Source: a virus (taxonomy: Duplodnaviria; Caudoviricetes). Taken from it: a stretch of 37,725 bases of DNA. The position numbers and the translations under genes are program-made. Below are positions 3,994 through 37,383 of this stretch, one piece after another. The stretch spans positions 1 to 37,725 of IMG/VR virus record IMGVR_UViG_3300022930_000018; one strand, written 5' to 3'. Numbering within the stretch: the first letter of the stretch is position 1; each line of letters begins with the position of its first letter. The notes below the pieces were generated by a model. The model was not told the origin of the DNA, did not search any database, and saw nothing but the letters and a program-made list of their open reading frames with translations.

Positions 3994-4251
3994 ATGAAAG
4001 AACACAATTTAAAATTAGACATTCAGTATTTCGATGATGCTATTTGCGGAAAGAAAACATTTGAAATAAGATTTAATGACCGTCAATTTATGGCAGGTGA
4101 TAGAATAGTTTTACGGGAATGGGATAGCGAAAAACAAGATTACACGGGTCGGTTAATCGGAGGTTACATTTCTTATGTTTTGCGAGATTTCCACGCTTTA
4201 AAAGATGGCTATGTGGCTTTCGCTTATCATCCAACCGAAACAATAAATTAA
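3994..4251 (+). CDS. ASCH/PUA-like (DUF3850) domain protein
   Basis: HNLK...YFDDAICGKKTFEIRFNDRQFMAGDRIVLREW is the ASCH GxKxxExR signature. Confidence 0.9.
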   Translation: MKEHNLKLDIQYFDDAICGKKTFEIRFNDRQFMAGDRIVLREWDSEKQDYTGRLIGGYISYVLRDFHALKDGYVAFAYHPTETIN

Positions 4252-5507: not shown

Positions 5508-5542
5508 AAACTCCCCACCTCATTAGAAGCGGGGAGTTTTTT
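5508..5542. terminator. Intrinsic terminator between the convergent arms, probably bidirectional
   Basis: AAACTCCCC...GGGGAGTTTTTT hairpin between convergent stop codons. Confidence 0.8.
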
Positions 5543-5558
5543 AATCTCATTCTTTTGG

Positions 5559-27828: not shown

Positions 27829-27861
27829 GTTATTGTTTTTTAGTTACACCCCTCCCTTAAT

Positions 27862-28014
27862 ACTTGCATAAGTTACCCAAGCAAGAACGTTAGATTTTAT
27901 ACTAACTCAGCACTAATTAAATTAATCTTGCAGACCTTTTTTAAGGTGTTAGCCATATCGCCTTTCGCTAACTTTATTAATTTGCTCCTTTATCTCTATT
28001 AAAAATATGCAAGT
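27862..28014 (-). ncRNA. Candidate structured RNA
   Basis: 9-bp closing helix ACTTGCATA/TATGCAAGT enclosing four short stems in a long intergenic region. Confidence 0.4.
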
Positions 28015-28154
28015 CGAGACCCGGAGTTGTCGGAGTGTGGGACATTGCTCGGATTTGGAGGTTCGTACTTTTGCGGAAATCATATTTGTATTCTTATTAA
28101 AAACGCTGGTCGGTTTGAGTAGGTCATACCTGAGAAAACACCTAAATACAAATA

Positions 28155-28292
28155 AAAAAGCCACTTACTATGTTAAAGACTTTCAATTGCAAACAAAAGT
28201 TTTTAGTAAATGGCTTTTTAAATATTATAAAAAGAATGTTTCGGTAAGATTTAAAAATCGATAACTTAACTAATGTTTGCTCTACAAAGATA
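28155..28292 (-). promoter_or_regulatory. Promoter plus loop-loop leader (element C)
   Basis: TATCTTTG; GCAAACA near the start; complementary TGTTTGC at the tip of the AAAAGCCATTTACTA/TAGTAAGTGGCTTTT hairpin. Confidence 0.6.
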
Positions 28293-28307: not shown

Positions 28308-29672
28308 TTATTTTAATAAATTTTTTAATATTGCCTGAATTGGAGGAACTGATATTGTATTCCCGGCTTGTTTGTATAATTGTGAATTGCTTACTCCTGC
28401 ATCTATTGCGTTTTGTAGAAATTCATCCGGAAAACCTTGAAGTCGGAAGCATTCTTTGGGTGTGAGCTTTCGGATTCGATAGTCAGAATATTGTACGCAT
28501 TTAGGTGCTTTGTAATCCGTTGCTAAAAGTGCTGGTGAATTACCATCTTTGAAACCGTCAAATTCTAATTTCTTTGAAATTGGGTGTACTGCTATTCCGG
28601 TGTAAACCACCAAATTATCTTTCTGCACGGTACTCAAACAATTGGAAGTTCCTATATCGCCAACTTTCTGAATAATCTTTGGCTGATTCTTATTTTCTTC
28701 TTTCAAAAAATATAAATGACTTGTGTCAATTCTCGTTAAAACAGTGCTTGTAACTTCTGTGTTTAAAGTCTGGTTGTAAGCATCAATAAAACAAGCTTCA
28801 TCAGGGATTTCATTTTTATCTAAAGTCTTATTAAGTCTGTCGCTGCCGTAGCCTGATTTGGTGGCGAATGGGACTTTTAAATAATTGTCATCAATTCCCA
28901 TTTTATAATATCTGGCTGTAAGTGCTGACGAAATTTCACTTTCGGTATTTTCAATAGGTTTGAAGCTAAATCCATTTCCTTTCAGCTTCATATTTTCGCT
29001 GTGATTCTGGAAACCTTTTATAATCTTCTCACTCAAATAATACTTTTCGTCCACTTCCGGCTCTAAAATATCCTTTAACCTTAATTTCAGCGGAACACCT
29101 TTCGGAAATACAAAAGAGTTCGGTAAATCGTTTCTTATGCCTATCAAAAACACTCTTTCACGGTTCTGCGGAAGTCCGTAATCTTTGGTATTTAAAACCT
29201 GCCAATGTAAATTATACATTAAAGAATCTTCGTGAGGAAATATAAACGTATTTCCGTTTTCGCTTTGCCCTAATAACTGAATCCAGTTTCGGAAAGTTTC
29301 GCCATCGTTATCGCTTAATAATCCTTTCACGTTTTCGATGATGAAATATTTAGGGTTTTGGTTTTTAACGTATCGCAGGAAATCAAAGAATAATAAACCG
29401 CGCGGATCTAATTCTCCTAATCGCTTTCCGGCTAAACTGAAACTTTGGCAAGGTAAACCTGAGATGTTTAGGTCGCTATAATACTCCTCTCCAATGTAAT
29501 CAGGTTTGGTCATATCATTAACCATTTTTTTTGTATAATGGTTCGCAAGGTAAGTTTCACGAGCATATTTATCAATTTCAGCAGTTAAAACAATTTCGTG
29601 TTCTATTCCTAAATTCTTTAGCGCAACCTCTGGGCTTCCAATACCCGAACAAAACGTACTGATTTTTAACAT
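28308..29672 (-). CDS. DNA (cytosine-5) methyltransferase
   Basis: Motifs I FCSGIG, IV LPCQSFS, VI ENVKG, VIII QNRERVF, IX RKLTPKECFRLQGF, X YKQAGN. Confidence 0.95.
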   Translation of the reverse strand: MLKISTFCSGIGSPEVALKNLGIEHEIVLTAEIDKYARETYLANHYTKKMVNDMTKPDYIGEEYYSDLNISGLPCQSFSLAGKRLGELDPRGLLFFDFLRYVKNQNPKYFIIENVKGLLSDNDGETFRNWIQLLGQSENGNTFIFPHEDSLMYNLHWQVLNTKDYGLPQNRERVFLIGIRNDLPNSFVFPKGVPLKLRLKDILEPEVDEKYYLSEKIIKGFQNHSENMKLKGNGFSFKPIENTESEISSALTARYYKMGIDDNYLKVPFATKSGYGSDRLNKTLDKNEIPDEACFIDAYNQTLNTEVTSTVLTRIDTSHLYFLKEENKNQPKIIQKVGDIGTSNCLSTVQKDNLVVYTGIAVHPISKKLEFDGFKDGNSPALLATDYKAPKCVQYSDYRIRKLTPKECFRLQGFPDEFLQNAIDAGVSNSQLYKQAGNTISVPPIQAILKNLLK

Positions 29673-29687
29673 AATTAAAATTAAAAT

Positions 29688-29788
29688 GAGAAAACCCCAA
29701 CAGACCTACTACAATCTATCAGGGTTTCTCGGTTAGTCATTAGACTAAAACTCGTTAATGCAAGTAGTAGATTGCTTTCACAAATTTA
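29688..29788 (-). promoter_or_regulatory. Promoter plus loop-loop leader (element B)
   Basis: TAAATTTG; hairpin GCAA-TCTACTAC-TTGC; long hairpin with loop TGTAGTAG. Confidence 0.7.
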
Positions 29789-29851: not shown

Positions 29852-29877
29852 TAATAAAAGTATTGAAATATATTTGT

Positions 29878-29904
29878 TTTGTATTTACAAATGTATTTAC
29901 TTTG
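29878..29904 (+). promoter_or_regulatory. Early promoter with direct-repeat operator
   Basis: TGTATTTAC twice (29880-29888, 29892-29900) running into TTACTTTG, upstream of the RHH gene. Confidence 0.5.
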
Positions 29905-34290: not shown

Positions 34291-34458
34291 ATGTTCCAAC
34301 ACAAAGGAGTAAGATACCACCTTAACGATTCGCCAAACTCTAAAGGAAGAATTTTTATGTACGCACTTGAAAATGATAAATTCCTTAAACCTTTGCAAAG
34401 CACGAGTTTTAAAGACGCGGAAATTGAGGTTAAAAAAATAATAGAAAAGAAATTATGA
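34291..34458 (+). CDS. Small hypothetical protein (55 aa, not in the ORF track)
   Basis: MFQHKGVRYHLND...; stop overlaps the next ATG (ATGA). Confidence 0.6.
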   Translation: MFQHKGVRYHLNDSPNSKGRIFMYALENDKFLKPLQSTSFKDAEIEVKKIIEKKL

Positions 34459-35135
34459 AAATCACTGATAAAATAGAAATAACTCAAGAAGATAACATGG
34501 AATTAATGAAGCGTTATCCCGATAAGTATTTCTCTATTGCCATTTGCGACCCTCCGTACGGAATTGACGCAGCAAAAATGACAATGGGAAGCGGTAAGCA
34601 CAAATTTATAAAGGGTAAATCTTGGGATTCAAATATTCCTAACGAAGAATATTTCAAGGAATTGTTTAGAGTTTCTAAAAATCAAATCATTTGGGGTGGC
34701 AATTACTTTCCATTGCCTCTAAATAATAATTGGGTTATATGGGATAAATTAAACCCTAATATGTCTTTTTCTGAAGCAGAAATGGCTTGGTGTTCAATAA
34801 ACAACAACACAAGAATTTTTAAACGATTAAGTACATTACCAGATATTGACGGGTCAAAAAGGCATATCACCCAAAAACCCGTTGCTCTCTACAAATGGCT
34901 TTTACAGAAATACGCCAATCCAAACGATAAGATTTTAGACACGCATTTAGGTTCTGGAAGTATTGCAATTGCTTGTCACGATTTCGGCTATGAATTAACA
35001 GCTTGTGAACTTGATACCGATTATTATAATTCTGCTATTGAAAGGATTAAAAAACACTGTTCTCAACCATCATTATTTGAACCTGGAGAACTATTACAAC
35101 CAAGTCTAAAATTTGACTTTGACCACGAGGTTTAA
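34455..35135 (+). CDS. DNA N6-adenine/N4-cytosine methyltransferase (beta-type order)
   Basis: ICDPPYG near the N-terminus, H.TQKP, ILDTHLGSGS near the C-terminus. Confidence 0.92.
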   Translation: MKITDKIEITQEDNMELMKRYPDKYFSIAICDPPYGIDAAKMTMGSGKHKFIKGKSWDSNIPNEEYFKELFRVSKNQIIWGGNYFPLPLNNNWVIWDKLNPNMSFSEAEMAWCSINNNTRIFKRLSTLPDIDGSKRHITQKPVALYKWLLQKYANPNDKILDTHLGSGSIAIACHDFGYELTACELDTDYYNSAIERIKKHCSQPSLFEPGELLQPSLKFDFDHEV

Positions 35136-35193: not shown

Positions 35194-35303
35194 TATATTT
35201 GCGTTGTATTAATCGAGTAGAAGCGAATTAATACCATTGACGAAATTTTTAACAATCCTAAACTGCGGAGCCTTCTACCTCCAAAGTTTGGGATTTTTAT
35301 TTT
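35194..35303 (+). promoter_or_regulatory. Promoter plus loop-loop leader of the replication operon (element A)
   Basis: TATATTTG; hairpin 35206-35234 with loop AGTAGAAG; hairpin 35254-35295 with loop CCTTCTAC followed by a T run. Confidence 0.75.
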
Positions 35304-35309
35304 ACCCAT

Positions 35310-36083
35310 ATGCGAGATAGTTCAATATTTTACAGAAGCTTTTATGAAGCATTAAAAGATCTTCCTGCTGAAAACCAAGCCGAATTATACACTGCTATTT
35401 TCGAGTATTCTCTTAACTTTAATGAAGTAGAATTAACAGGTTTATCAAACACGATTTTTAAGCTTATTAAGCCACAATTAAAGGCTAACAATAAGAAATA
35501 TGAAAACGGTAAAAAGGGAGGAGCGCCTAATAAAGAAAACCAAAATGAAACCAAAGAAGAACCAAATAATAACCAAAACGAAACCAAATCAAAAGCTAAT
35601 GTAAATGATAATGATAATTTAAATGAGAATTATAAAGATAAAGAATATAATACTTTGTTCGAAATCAAAGATTTCAACTTTGCAATTTCTAATTTTTCAG
35701 GTAATAAGCAATATTTTTATTTGTGTTACCGATATTGGGAACTCTACAGAAAAGAATATCCCAACCATATGCATTTGAAAACTGCTAAATTCAAAGAATG
35801 GTACGATTCAATTCGTTTAATGGTAGAATCAGATAAACAGTCTATTGATAGAATAGTTGCTATTTACATTTTTCTAACTAAATGCCAAAACAAAGAAAAG
35901 GGATATGAAACATTTTTATTCAGCCAGGTTAAATCTCTAACCGCGCTTAGAAAGAAAACGGCAAGCGGTGAATATCGATTAGATAACTTAGCAACTTTGG
36001 TAAATGAAAAACTTCAAAAGGATGATGAGTTTAATCGAAGCGTAAAAAAGGCAATAGAAACATTTAAAACTAAATTCCAATGA
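35310..36083 (+). CDS. Replication initiator (DUF6291 N-terminal domain)
   Basis: MRDSSIFYRSFYEAL...Y.AIFEY...IKPQL...NGKKGGAP; low-complexity linker; upstream of a helicase-like gene. Confidence 0.8.
   Translation: MRDSSIFYRSFYEALKDLPAENQAELYTAIFEYSLNFNEVELTGLSNTIFKLIKPQLKANNKKYENGKKGGAPNKENQNETKEEPNNNQNETKSKANVNDNDNLNENYKDKEYNTLFEIKDFNFAISNFSGNKQYFYLCYRYWELYRKEYPNHMHLKTAKFKEWYDSIRLMVESDKQSIDRIVAIYIFLTKCQNKEKGYETFLFSQVKSLTALRKKTASGEYRLDNLATLVNEKLQKDDEFNRSVKKAIETFKTKFQ
35538..35588. repeat. Five AACCAAA repeats at 11-bp period; putative origin iterons
   Basis: Copies begin at 35538, 35549, 35560, 35571 and 35582; AT-rich tract follows. Confidence 0.75.
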
Positions 36084-36568
36084 GATCACTAAATAAATTA
36101 ATAAATCGGTTTGAATGGGCGTTAAAGAACAAAAAACCTATCAACCCGAATAGAGAAGATTTGGAAGCCTTAAACGAGTTGTCGGATTATTTCCAAACTC
36201 AAAAATTTAATTCTAATTTAGAAGATAGTTTACTTTTGTTTTGGGTTTTCTGCAATTGGAAATTAGCAATCGAGGAAAGCAAAGTAAAATTTGAAGAGGA
36301 AAAAAGAGGTTATTTGGTTTTGCCTGAATTATCTTTGGTTTTCGATAAACTTTGTTTACTGTTAAATCCTAAAGTTTTTATGATTAATGAAATTACAACC
36401 GATTTACAGTTAGCGCAAAGAAAATTAGGAAATACGATTTCAATAACTGAATCAGAAGTTGAATCTATTTTAGAAGATGCTTTACGAGTGGTTAAGGAAA
36501 TGAAACAACCAATATCACAGTTGTCAAAGTTCGAAAAATTAATAATGCCCAAAACTAAATCCAAATGA
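36080..36568 (+). CDS. Hypothetical protein in the replication operon
   Basis: ATGA overlaps on both sides. Confidence 0.75.
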   Translation: MRSLNKLINRFEWALKNKKPINPNREDLEALNELSDYFQTQKFNSNLEDSLLLFWVFCNWKLAIEESKVKFEEEKRGYLVLPELSLVFDKLCLLLNPKVFMINEITTDLQLAQRKLGNTISITESEVESILEDALRVVKEMKQPISQLSKFEKLIMPKTKSK

Positions 36569-37383
36569 TTAGAAAATTAGACGCTTCGTTATTGGATTTG
36601 GTAGAACCGGAAATTGAAGGTTTTGATATTTCAGAATATTTGATAGATCCATTTGAAAAAGTTCCCGAACCTACACCGATTTTAGCAGTAAAGCAAAATG
36701 GATATCATATATCGATTTTTACAGAAGATAATATATCAATGCTTCAAGGTAGAGCAAAGAGCCGAAAATCAACGTTTATTAAGGCGATAGGGATTGCAAT
36801 TGCTTGCGGTGTTTATGATAGGTTAGAATGTTTTTACCCACGAAACAATTTAGCGATTATTGATACGGAACAAGGGAAGTTTCATTGTTGGCAGTCGGCA
36901 AACTTAATTTCTCAAAAGTCTGGTAAGCGAGTAAATTATTACAAAGTCGCTGGAATGCCCGCTGAAAAAAAGAAATGGTTAGTTGAAGAACATTTGAAAA
37001 GAAATCCGGATTGCGGTTTTATAATTTTGGATAATATAGTTCACTTTTTAAATAACTTTAATGATCCCACGGAATCAGCACAATTAAATGAATGGCTTAT
37101 CAAGATTAAATCTCAATACAATTGTCATATTTTAAACGTGCTGCACGAAAACGGAGGTGATTTTGGAGCAGGAAAGGCTAAAGGACATTTAGGCAGTTTA
37201 TTAGAAAATACTTGTGAGACTATTATAAGAGTTGAAAAAGACAAGGATAATAAAAATCAAAGTATTGTATCGGTAAAAGAATCGAGAGGTCAGGAATTTG
37301 AAGCATTTGCATTAGAGCGAGATATGCAGGGTGTTCCTTTTTTATCCGATTACGTTAAACCATCAAGACAAGGAGAAGTATGA
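36565..37383 (+). CDS. AAA_25/RecA-fold ATPase, putative replicative helicase
   Basis: Walker A GRAKSRKS, IDTEQ, Walker B IILDN, VLHEN, GHLGS. Confidence 0.8.
   Translation: MIRKLDASLLDLVEPEIEGFDISEYLIDPFEKVPEPTPILAVKQNGYHISIFTEDNISMLQGRAKSRKSTFIKAIGIAIACGVYDRLECFYPRNNLAIIDTEQGKFHCWQSANLISQKSGKRVNYYKVAGMPAEKKKWLVEEHLKRNPDCGFIILDNIVHFLNNFNDPTESAQLNEWLIKIKSQYNCHILNVLHENGGDFGAGKAKGHLGSLLENTCETIIRVEKDKDNKNQSIVSVKESRGQEFEAFALERDMQGVPFLSDYVKPSRQGEV

Follow-up and report, generated by a model that had tools for sequence, protein, structure and literature searches.

The replication genes of the phage genome analysed here are preceded by an RNA leader, termed leader A, in which the loop of a 5′ hairpin is complementary to the loop of a terminator-like hairpin lying just upstream of the ATG. 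Comparison of related sequences indicates that this loop pairing is under selection, and the leader design is real, widespread and uncatalogued within the databases and literature searched. The pairing in leader A likely sets the amount of transcription that enters the replication genes. The reading favoured here, with a probability of about 0.4, is that leader A is an attenuator in which the loop-loop (kissing) contact hinders zipping of the terminator with no ligand involved, and from which the released leaders may act as inhibitors in trans.

The window, i.e. the entire 37,725-nucleotide stretch of DNA, is one whole tailed-phage genome (37.7 kb), which is considered complete because a 127-bp end repeat is present. 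The genome consists of two arms split at ~29.8 kb: the rightward arm carries recombination, methylase and replication genes, and the leftward arm carries C5 methylase, ninG, terminase, capsid, tail and lysis genes. The TANNTTTG words, together with the named homologues (from Apibacter, Chryseobacterium and Riemerella), suggest a Bacteroidota host. No integrase was found among the ORFs scanned (overlapping sets of 36, 19, 35 and 5 proteins). The gene behind leader A (35310–36083, plus strand) encodes a DUF6291 protein (Pfam DUF6291, E 1e-20) that is likely initiator-like, as judged from this match and from O-like and DnaD-like PHROG matches (PHROG 391, ‘replication initiation O-like’, E 1e-6). 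The same operon contains an AAA_25/helicase-like gene (36565–37383, plus strand; weak matches, E 1.4e-4 and 8e-4).

Several other features of the genome are worth recording. Three DNA methylase genes (C5, N6/N4 and D12) are present within 37.7 kb, at 28308–29672, 34455–35135 and 2037–2777, one of them behind leader B (described below) and another immediately 5′ of leader A. A tRNA-like gene (1496–1589, 40.7 bits with Rfam) has an unusually long anticodon region and is followed by a hairpin. A strong bidirectional terminator-like hairpin occupies the junction of both arms at 5509–5545. At the arm divergence, two facing TANNTTTG words (29869–29876, plus; 29888–29895, minus) lie within an AT-rich inverted repeat, a possible switch or operator region.

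Leader A has a promoter-like −7 element, TATATTTG (35194–35201, plus strand), recognised by the consensus and numbering in the promoter passages of PMC6847099, where the G of TANNTTTG is placed at −5; the predicted +1 is therefore 35206, the first base of hairpin 1. Hairpin 1 (35206–35234), defined by folding and by stem changes in relatives, has ten pairs, one bulge and an 8-nt loop, AGUAGAAG (35216–35223), which contains the 5′ kissing sequence X, GUAGAAG (35217–35223). An AU-rich linker of 19 nt, variable in sequence among close relatives, spans 35235–35253. The terminator-like hairpin 2 (35254–35295) is made of an 11-bp lower stem, a 2×2 internal loop, a 4-bp top stem and an 8-nt loop, CCUUCUAC (35271–35278), which holds the complement of X, CUUCUAC (X′, 35272–35278). 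It is followed by a U tract, UUUUUAUUUU (35294–35303), a feature enriched across the family, which marks the predicted termination zone. The leader is ~95 nt long and the ATG of the DUF6291 gene is at 35310. The fold has a computed energy of −25.9 kcal/mol (z −4.2; equalled in 0 of 200 shuffles), and the 7-bp X:X′ helix is worth −7.4 kcal/mol when computed as a free duplex. The promoter word, the two hairpins, the U tract before the ATG and the pairing of X with X′, all proposed in a first-pass annotation of this DNA, are thus confirmed.

The promoter word by itself occurs at chance level, with 60 copies in the window against 60.5 expected. The whole promoter-plus-hairpins unit was found twice in the window by a first detector (leaders A and C; B was missed on a tie) against once in 12 shuffled genomes, and a refined detector recovered A, B and C, while a simple terminator scan of the window lists B and neither A nor C. 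In close relatives of leader A from three studies, whose loose ends run into different genes, the listed differences fall at 35231–35263 and none lies in either loop. The stem of hairpin 1 carries pairing-preserving changes in one relative (L260) and is different, around an identical loop, in another (L281); its top three pairs all show two-sided changes.

No nested antiterminator is present in leader A: when the 3′ arm of the terminator is forced open, no alternative helix forms (−10.9 versus −25.6 kcal/mol), and the 5′ part of the leader can consequently reach the terminator via the kiss alone. In the fold computation X′ is free as long as the lower stem is open. The linker of leader A has no AUG, which is present in two of 20 A-family loci, and a TTG frame at 35237 is not conserved in close relatives. 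A match of at least 5 bp to the loop is present further downstream in 21 of 106 leaders, which do not include A, and one of 20 A-family loci has such a second target. A reverse TANNTTTG word is absent across leader A, and the leaders overall have it in 2/26 cases versus 6/60 controls, a count that covers TANNTTTG-type promoters only.

The evidence for selection on the pairing comes from several collections. The relatives of the DUF6291 gene comprise 249 loci, of which 169 are non-redundant and have enough upstream DNA (the window itself among them), and in 78 of the 169 a stable hairpin lies no more than 35 nt from the ATG. A duplex of at least 7 bp between a leader’s own 5′ region and its own loop was found in 46 of these 78, compared with 132 of 1538 swapped pairs, and at 9 bp the same comparison gives 29/78 versus 20/1538. 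The leaders with pairing fall into 24 lineages (24–26 across counts) with unrelated loop letters. The second collection was chosen blind to pairing: 1651 promoter-like sites in the collected loci and the window yielded 104 non-redundant promoter-plus-terminator units, 37 of which (including A, B and C) have a pairing of 7 bp or longer, as opposed to 67 of 2570 swaps. Within an alignable subfamily of 12 members, two-sided changes are seen at seven of the nine X:X′ pairs and 97% of the cells are paired, dropping to 32–48% in shifted registers; the score was reached by 0 of 500 shuffles, a figure that is not a probability, the sequences being related.

A further collection addresses the letters of leader A itself. 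Viral contigs were scanned for these letters with position 5 of X and its partner left free; the U run was part of the pattern and hence provides no evidence. The 91 loci found reduce to 58 non-redundant matches, and in 22 of them X′ is at the tip of a stable hairpin. The free position is Watson-Crick paired in 21 of these 22 apex-hairpin matches, versus 12 of the 36 without a hairpin, with all four pair types represented (G-C 11, C-G 5, A-U 4, U-A 1); the single mismatch is a second register of one locus (L419), and by locus the covariation holds in 21 of 21. Over 16 hand-assigned lineages the permutation p is 1.7e-7. As six of the seven loop pairs in the resulting alignment (A5) are fixed by the search pattern, one position alone tests A’s own letters. 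The hairpin-bearing homologues keep the loop complementarity that the first-pass annotation proposed to check for covariation. Earlier pattern scans had given one real leader in 17 loci, and three loci (two distinct leaders) in 22.

The G-U pairs within the X:X′ helix and the stems point to the sense-strand RNA as the molecule that folds. They are tolerated on one strand only, and the pairing is restricted to hairpin tips. It is very improbable that the complementarity arises by chance or from DNA-level inverted repeats, whether made alike by template switching or bound by a protein; seven base pairs are short and the promoter word alone is at chance, but the own-versus-swapped excess, the covariation, the one-strand tolerance of G-U and the confinement to tips largely exclude this explanation.

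Hairpin 2 looks like an intrinsic terminator, having a stable stem with a U tract directly after it. Directly 3′ of the last G-C pair, the next 8 nt include at least six U in 15 of 18 apex-type DUF6291 leaders versus 4 of 27 hairpins without pairing, which supports the earlier attenuation reading as far as a terminator-like second hairpin goes; no U filter was applied, and 73 of the 78 hairpins fell into the three classes compared, the third being off-centre leaders with weaker U tracts (14/28 with at least six U). The exact promoter word likewise accompanies 15/18 apex-type leaders and 5/27 hairpins without pairing.

The module is portable. Copies of the A family precede DUF6291, Prim-Pol, Rha/KilAC, HNH, GIY-YIG, HTH_36 and DUF1367 genes, with a Pfam match for ten of 15 downstream proteins, and the module is also found before stand-alone nuclease genes. 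The arms are mostly 14–22 nt long and the loops 8 nt. One A-family leader before a Rha/KilAC gene (L339:592–699, minus strand) has a purine-rich SD-like run and no nearby TANNTTTG word; judged from this sequence, the range of the module may extend beyond Bacteroidota phages. The distance from the last G-C pair to the ATG has a median of 11 nt and is 17 nt in A. Most of the 15 whole phage records compared for loop letters shared among leaders yielded a single convincing leader. Two neighbouring arrangements were also seen: in one genome (G005:C1:38340–39508) a single leader is followed by three tandem DUF6291 genes, and in one locus (L018:587–619) the DUF805b Rfam motif lies ~800 nt 5′ of a leader.

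Two classes of leader are distinguished. In the loop class, which includes A and B, a 5′ hairpin carries X while X′ occupies the apex, and leader AUGs are not enriched (2/7 lineages); the automatic class labels had assigned B and one other leader (L073) to the open class. In that class X itself forms the 5′ end, and 12 of the 19 lineages have an AUG no more than 15 nt beyond X (5.0 expected, P 0.0004). The frames of these AUGs cross the hairpin in 9 of 12 lineages versus 4 of 24 for other frames, a proportion that becomes 7/12 by lineage majority, with 11 of 13 members of the largest lineage stopping inside the hairpin. The frame ends within 8 nt of the main ATG in six of the 12 AUG-bearing lineages, and the sequence of the leader peptide is not conserved. 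In the leader at L048:120–238 and its 11 relatives (alignment A3) the AUG comes directly after X; many copies have a 13-codon frame ending Leu-Pro-stop in the hairpin, and one-base shifts lead to other peptides. In both classes the predicted +1 base is buried, either within the hairpin 1 stem or within the X:X′ duplex.

A second target of the loop at the main start codon was found in 13 of 106 leaders (at least 8 bp) versus 18 of 2108 swapped pairs. These represent ~5 lineages; six of the 13 belong to one lineage, and one lies at a different loop site. A layout of three sites just before the DUF6291 ATG is seen in L023, L044, L104, L154, L176, L197, L229, L208 and the L010/L021/L024 group.

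Two other operons of the phage are headed by related designs. Leader B (29689–29788, minus strand) lies before the C5 DNA methylase gene (ATG 29672) and has a promoter-like element at 29788–29781 and two hairpins. Its 5′ hairpin has a 4-bp stem and the loop UCUACUAC (29771–29764), the terminator-like hairpin carries GUAGUAG (29712–29706), and the whole has the loop-loop form of leader A (z −4.6 to −4.9). Leader C (28155–28292, minus strand; promoter-like element 28292–28285) lies ahead of the ninG-terminase-capsid-tail-lysis arm. Its 5′ partner, GCAAACA (28280–28274), is in an open 5′ segment outside any loop, while the other, UGUUUGC (28195–28189), overlaps the apical stem of a long hairpin; the X:X′ fold displaces the long terminator at almost the same energy, and the nearest ATG is ~70 nt off (28083). 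A covariance model built from A’s family does not recover B and finds C merely with E 4.8, so that A, B and C share a common design but do not form one sequence family. The three-member RNA family of the first-pass annotation therefore does not stand as a family, and the claim that the same design heads two other operons holds for B and only partly for C, where the 5′ partner is unlooped and the other one overlaps the apical stem.

The 7-mers of B had been described as different from those of A; in fact they are near its mirror, with six of seven letters shared in this sense (A loops 35216–35223 and 35271–35278; B loops 29771–29764 and 29712–29706). The computed energies are −6.5 kcal/mol for the two 5′ loops and −6.3 for the two terminator loops, compared with −7.4 and −8.7 for the cognate pairs, and by this calculation released leaders A and B could pair with each other nearly as well as with themselves. 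Cross-leader loop matches of 6 bp occur in four of 325 cross-lineage pairs, the A/B pair included. No second genome with both A and B forms was found, 20 A-family records (many of them fragments) giving one chance-like match. Scans for B-type leaders gave no real one in 13 loci, and none of 51 B-polarity matches has an apex hairpin; a homologue search with the methylase gave one locus. Cross-talk between A and B is considered a lead only.

Leader C heads the minus arm from 28292 to 5559 (ninG, terminase, structural and lysis genes), presumably the place of a lambdoid late leader, and no Q-like family is present among the ORFs scanned. A stretch of ~320 nt (27830–28150) separates it from the next clear gene and contains several hairpins and a doubtful 44-codon frame from 28083. 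One other phage record (G001, L303: 1065 plus, 9108 minus) has an A-like leader plus a second leader, whose 5′ segment is like that of C and engages in a 14-nt pairing.

In the attenuator mechanism favoured here, transcription would begin at 35206, and the loop-loop pair would form while hairpin 2 is half made, obstructing its zipping into the terminator. With the terminator unzipped, polymerase would read on into the replication genes; otherwise it would terminate near 35300. That kissing favours read-through is suggested by the guanidine-IV precedent, the short linker and the competition seen in leader C. Terminated transcripts would be RNAs of ~95 nt with a protected 5′ end and a strained kiss, the least certain step of the scheme. 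In a crude tether model, holding the kiss in leader A costs ~1 kcal/mol early and 3–4 kcal/mol after full zipping. This is the direction expected from the steric route, but the strain is mostly relieved on fraying of hairpin 1 at its weak AU-rich base (1.5–2.0 kcal/mol). Across the family the medians are 4–6 kcal/mol, and 5–8 of 21 leaders could not hold the kiss unless frayed. As the lower terminator stem is worth ~14 kcal/mol, any effect of the kiss must be kinetic.

It is possible, though on the improbable side, that new transcripts have their loops captured by those of released leaders and are driven toward termination. Released leaders are favoured as the input because neither conserved ligand-binding bases nor an antisense promoter is seen. 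Such capture would amount to negative feedback, with the replication genes on early and later limited as leader RNA accumulates, and the loop letters would set its specificity. For this phage, with its complete genome and no integrase in the ORFs scanned, a role in immunity is doubtful, and control of timing or copy number is the better fit. A broader scheme, speculative and unlikely as a whole, would be a protein- and ligand-free self-titrating switch across Bacteroidota-type phages, in which the kiss in cis would permit read-through, a leader, once terminated, would act in trans as the repressor of itself, the letters would define exclusion groups between co-infecting phages, and the replication and methylase operons would be coupled through the mirror loops of A and B.

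Read-through is the favoured effect of the kiss, and the opposite, P4-like sign is a serious rival even if, on balance, unlikely; it draws mainly on the open class, in which X lies just ahead of a leader AUG and pairing would more naturally act as an off switch. In such an off switch X would be bound by the X′ loop, either in cis or, at an earlier stage, in trans by the loop of a released leader, and termination would be promoted. In A this would work through stabilisation of the weak 4-bp stem at the terminator top; in open-5′ relatives the leader start codon would be hidden, and the hairpin would then not be opened by a ribosome. This would be in line with the P4 CI RNA, which in the relevant parts of PMC4825925 and PMC10111431 pairs with sites on either side of itself and brings about termination in the replication operon, and also with the leader AUGs right after X, the frames crossing the hairpin and the second targets at the main start that are enriched among the relatives. 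The A family, however, mostly lacks both extras, no Rfam C4 or isrK match is found, and in leader C the pairing competes with the terminator. A different possibility, quite unlikely, is that the kissing complex is a letter-independent shape read by a phage or host protein, in the manner of Rop or Q, which decides read-through at A, B and C jointly. Free loop letters with retained geometry, and three differently lettered leaders that head, within a single genome, the replication, methylase and late arms, are what such a reader would predict, but no antiterminator family is present among the ORFs scanned, where a DUF3850/ASCH protein (3994–4251) is the sole one labelled ‘RNA-binding’, and the presence of the module before stand-alone nuclease genes argues against it.

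Control of initiator translation, with an outcome like that in ColIb-P9, is held to be about as improbable as the protein reader. Here hairpin 2 would border on the ribosome footprint and block the start to an extent that depends on the kiss, a route that the short distance to the ATG, the second targets overlapping start codons of relatives and the reduced initiation caused by structure at −20 to +20 in Flavobacterium (in the part of PMC6847099 on initiation) would allow. Against this, the U tracts of the apex class are strong, the ATG can be distant (46 nt in L260, and farther still in C), and the read-through fold of leader A leaves positions −14 to −1 partly to mostly unpaired. Decidedly improbable is the absence of any switch, in which the leader would be a terminator of fixed leak and the kiss would do no more than compact and protect a released small RNA with another job. 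The buried +1 base agrees with such protection, but the window offers no further targets (GTAGWAG occurs nine times, four of them inside A and B, against 3.9 expected), and the leader AUGs and second targets of the relatives favour regulation.

The leaders are not covered by Rfam 15: at E ≤ 1 the window gives the tRNA and one chance match, and 20 related loci have no match on their leaders, which is the outcome of the Rfam check proposed earlier. A blastn search of leader A against annotated phages gives no match across the leader core (best E 0.2). A weak model with seven pairs (R1), run with no positive control, finds nothing in five host genomes, and the A pattern in 401 genomes of the Chryseobacterium order has one match, mismatched at the free position. 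The GUCCY-hairpin, Bacteroides-2 and Flavo-1 motifs of Weinberg 2010 were considered and rejected, the excerpts of their alignments being unlike the leader design. No published description of the design was found in a literature search that covered few subscription papers, and the terminator part may be entered among candidates listed in bulk.

To our knowledge, little is known of how the timing of replication and late genes is set in Bacteroidota phages. The module described here, ~95 nt long and portable, is found ahead of the initiator gene at 46 of the 169 non-redundant DUF6291 loci and also before many other phage genes, and provides four matched natural letter variants at one loop position. 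If the kiss alone gates termination, such variants would be ready orthogonal regulators for Bacteroidota.

Among known systems, the closer structural analogue, absent from the first-pass annotation, is the guanidine-IV riboswitch (GGAM-1 or mepA motif), in which the loop of a 5′ hairpin likewise pairs with the loop of an intrinsic terminator. The kiss is proposed, in the mechanistic passages of two papers (PMC7736828, PMC11611296), to stretch the linker and block the base of the terminator. The loop bases of guanidine-IV are near-invariant and bind guanidine, whereas the leaders here have free letters with no ligand implied and are placed on phage replication and nuclease genes.

The gene setting resembles that of phage immunity RNAs. 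In P4 and P1 these systems include a short ORF (kil or icd) whose translation is blocked. The seqA-CI-seqC region of P4 and IsrK of Gifsy-1, as outlined in parts of PMC4825925 and PMC10111431, share with the present leaders a promoter-proximal RNA before replication genes and a 5′ site complementary to a later loop; early termination at P4 CI yields a short RNA, as would be predicted for the leaders here. Relatives of A have P4-like extras, namely a leader ORF and, at the start codon that follows, a second target. Leader A itself differs in having a single 7-nt pairing with no downstream site and no leader AUG, and no Rfam C4 or isrK match; the setting differs in that the window ORFs scanned include no integrase. 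The P4/P1 analogy drawn in the first-pass annotation is thus right as to the 5′ site complementary to a leader loop and fails for A as to the downstream site.

The C4 antisense RNA of P1/P7 (RF01695) has a role in ant control, according to the portion of PMC8201110 that deals with it. The likeness lies in a leader-encoded loop RNA with letter-coded specificity, and the A-family copy in L339 precedes a Rha/KilAC antirepressor. The differences are the lack of a sequence or model match, the two-hairpin unit in place of the C4 fold and, set beside the P1/P7 target layout, a single target. The repZ pseudoknot of ColIb-P9 involves a counter-transcribed antisense RNA (Inc) and a leader peptide coupled to rep. 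The comparison with it, also made earlier, holds in that a loop pairs over a long distance within the leader of a replication initiator, the gene here being probably initiator-like. It does not extend to the leader peptide, which leader A lacks, and probably not to the counter-transcript, for which no promoter word of the TANNTTTG type is seen over A; in addition, the partner sequence of leader A is in the loop of a U-tailed hairpin. The odc1 (uORF-25-1) motif, in which 5′-terminal bases pair with the loop of a long hairpin before the start codon and a uORF is involved (sections of PMC8632094), resembles the open-5′ class. As far as those sections describe it, odc1 belongs to an alphaproteobacterial chromosomal gene and has conserved bases, a conserved 11-aa peptide and an SD in the stem, none of which is seen here. 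Membership fails for both of the closest systems, the leaders being nearest to guanidine-IV in structure and to P4 CI in setting, and the module joins the architecture of a guanidine-IV-type riboswitch to the logic of a P4 CI-type immunity RNA.
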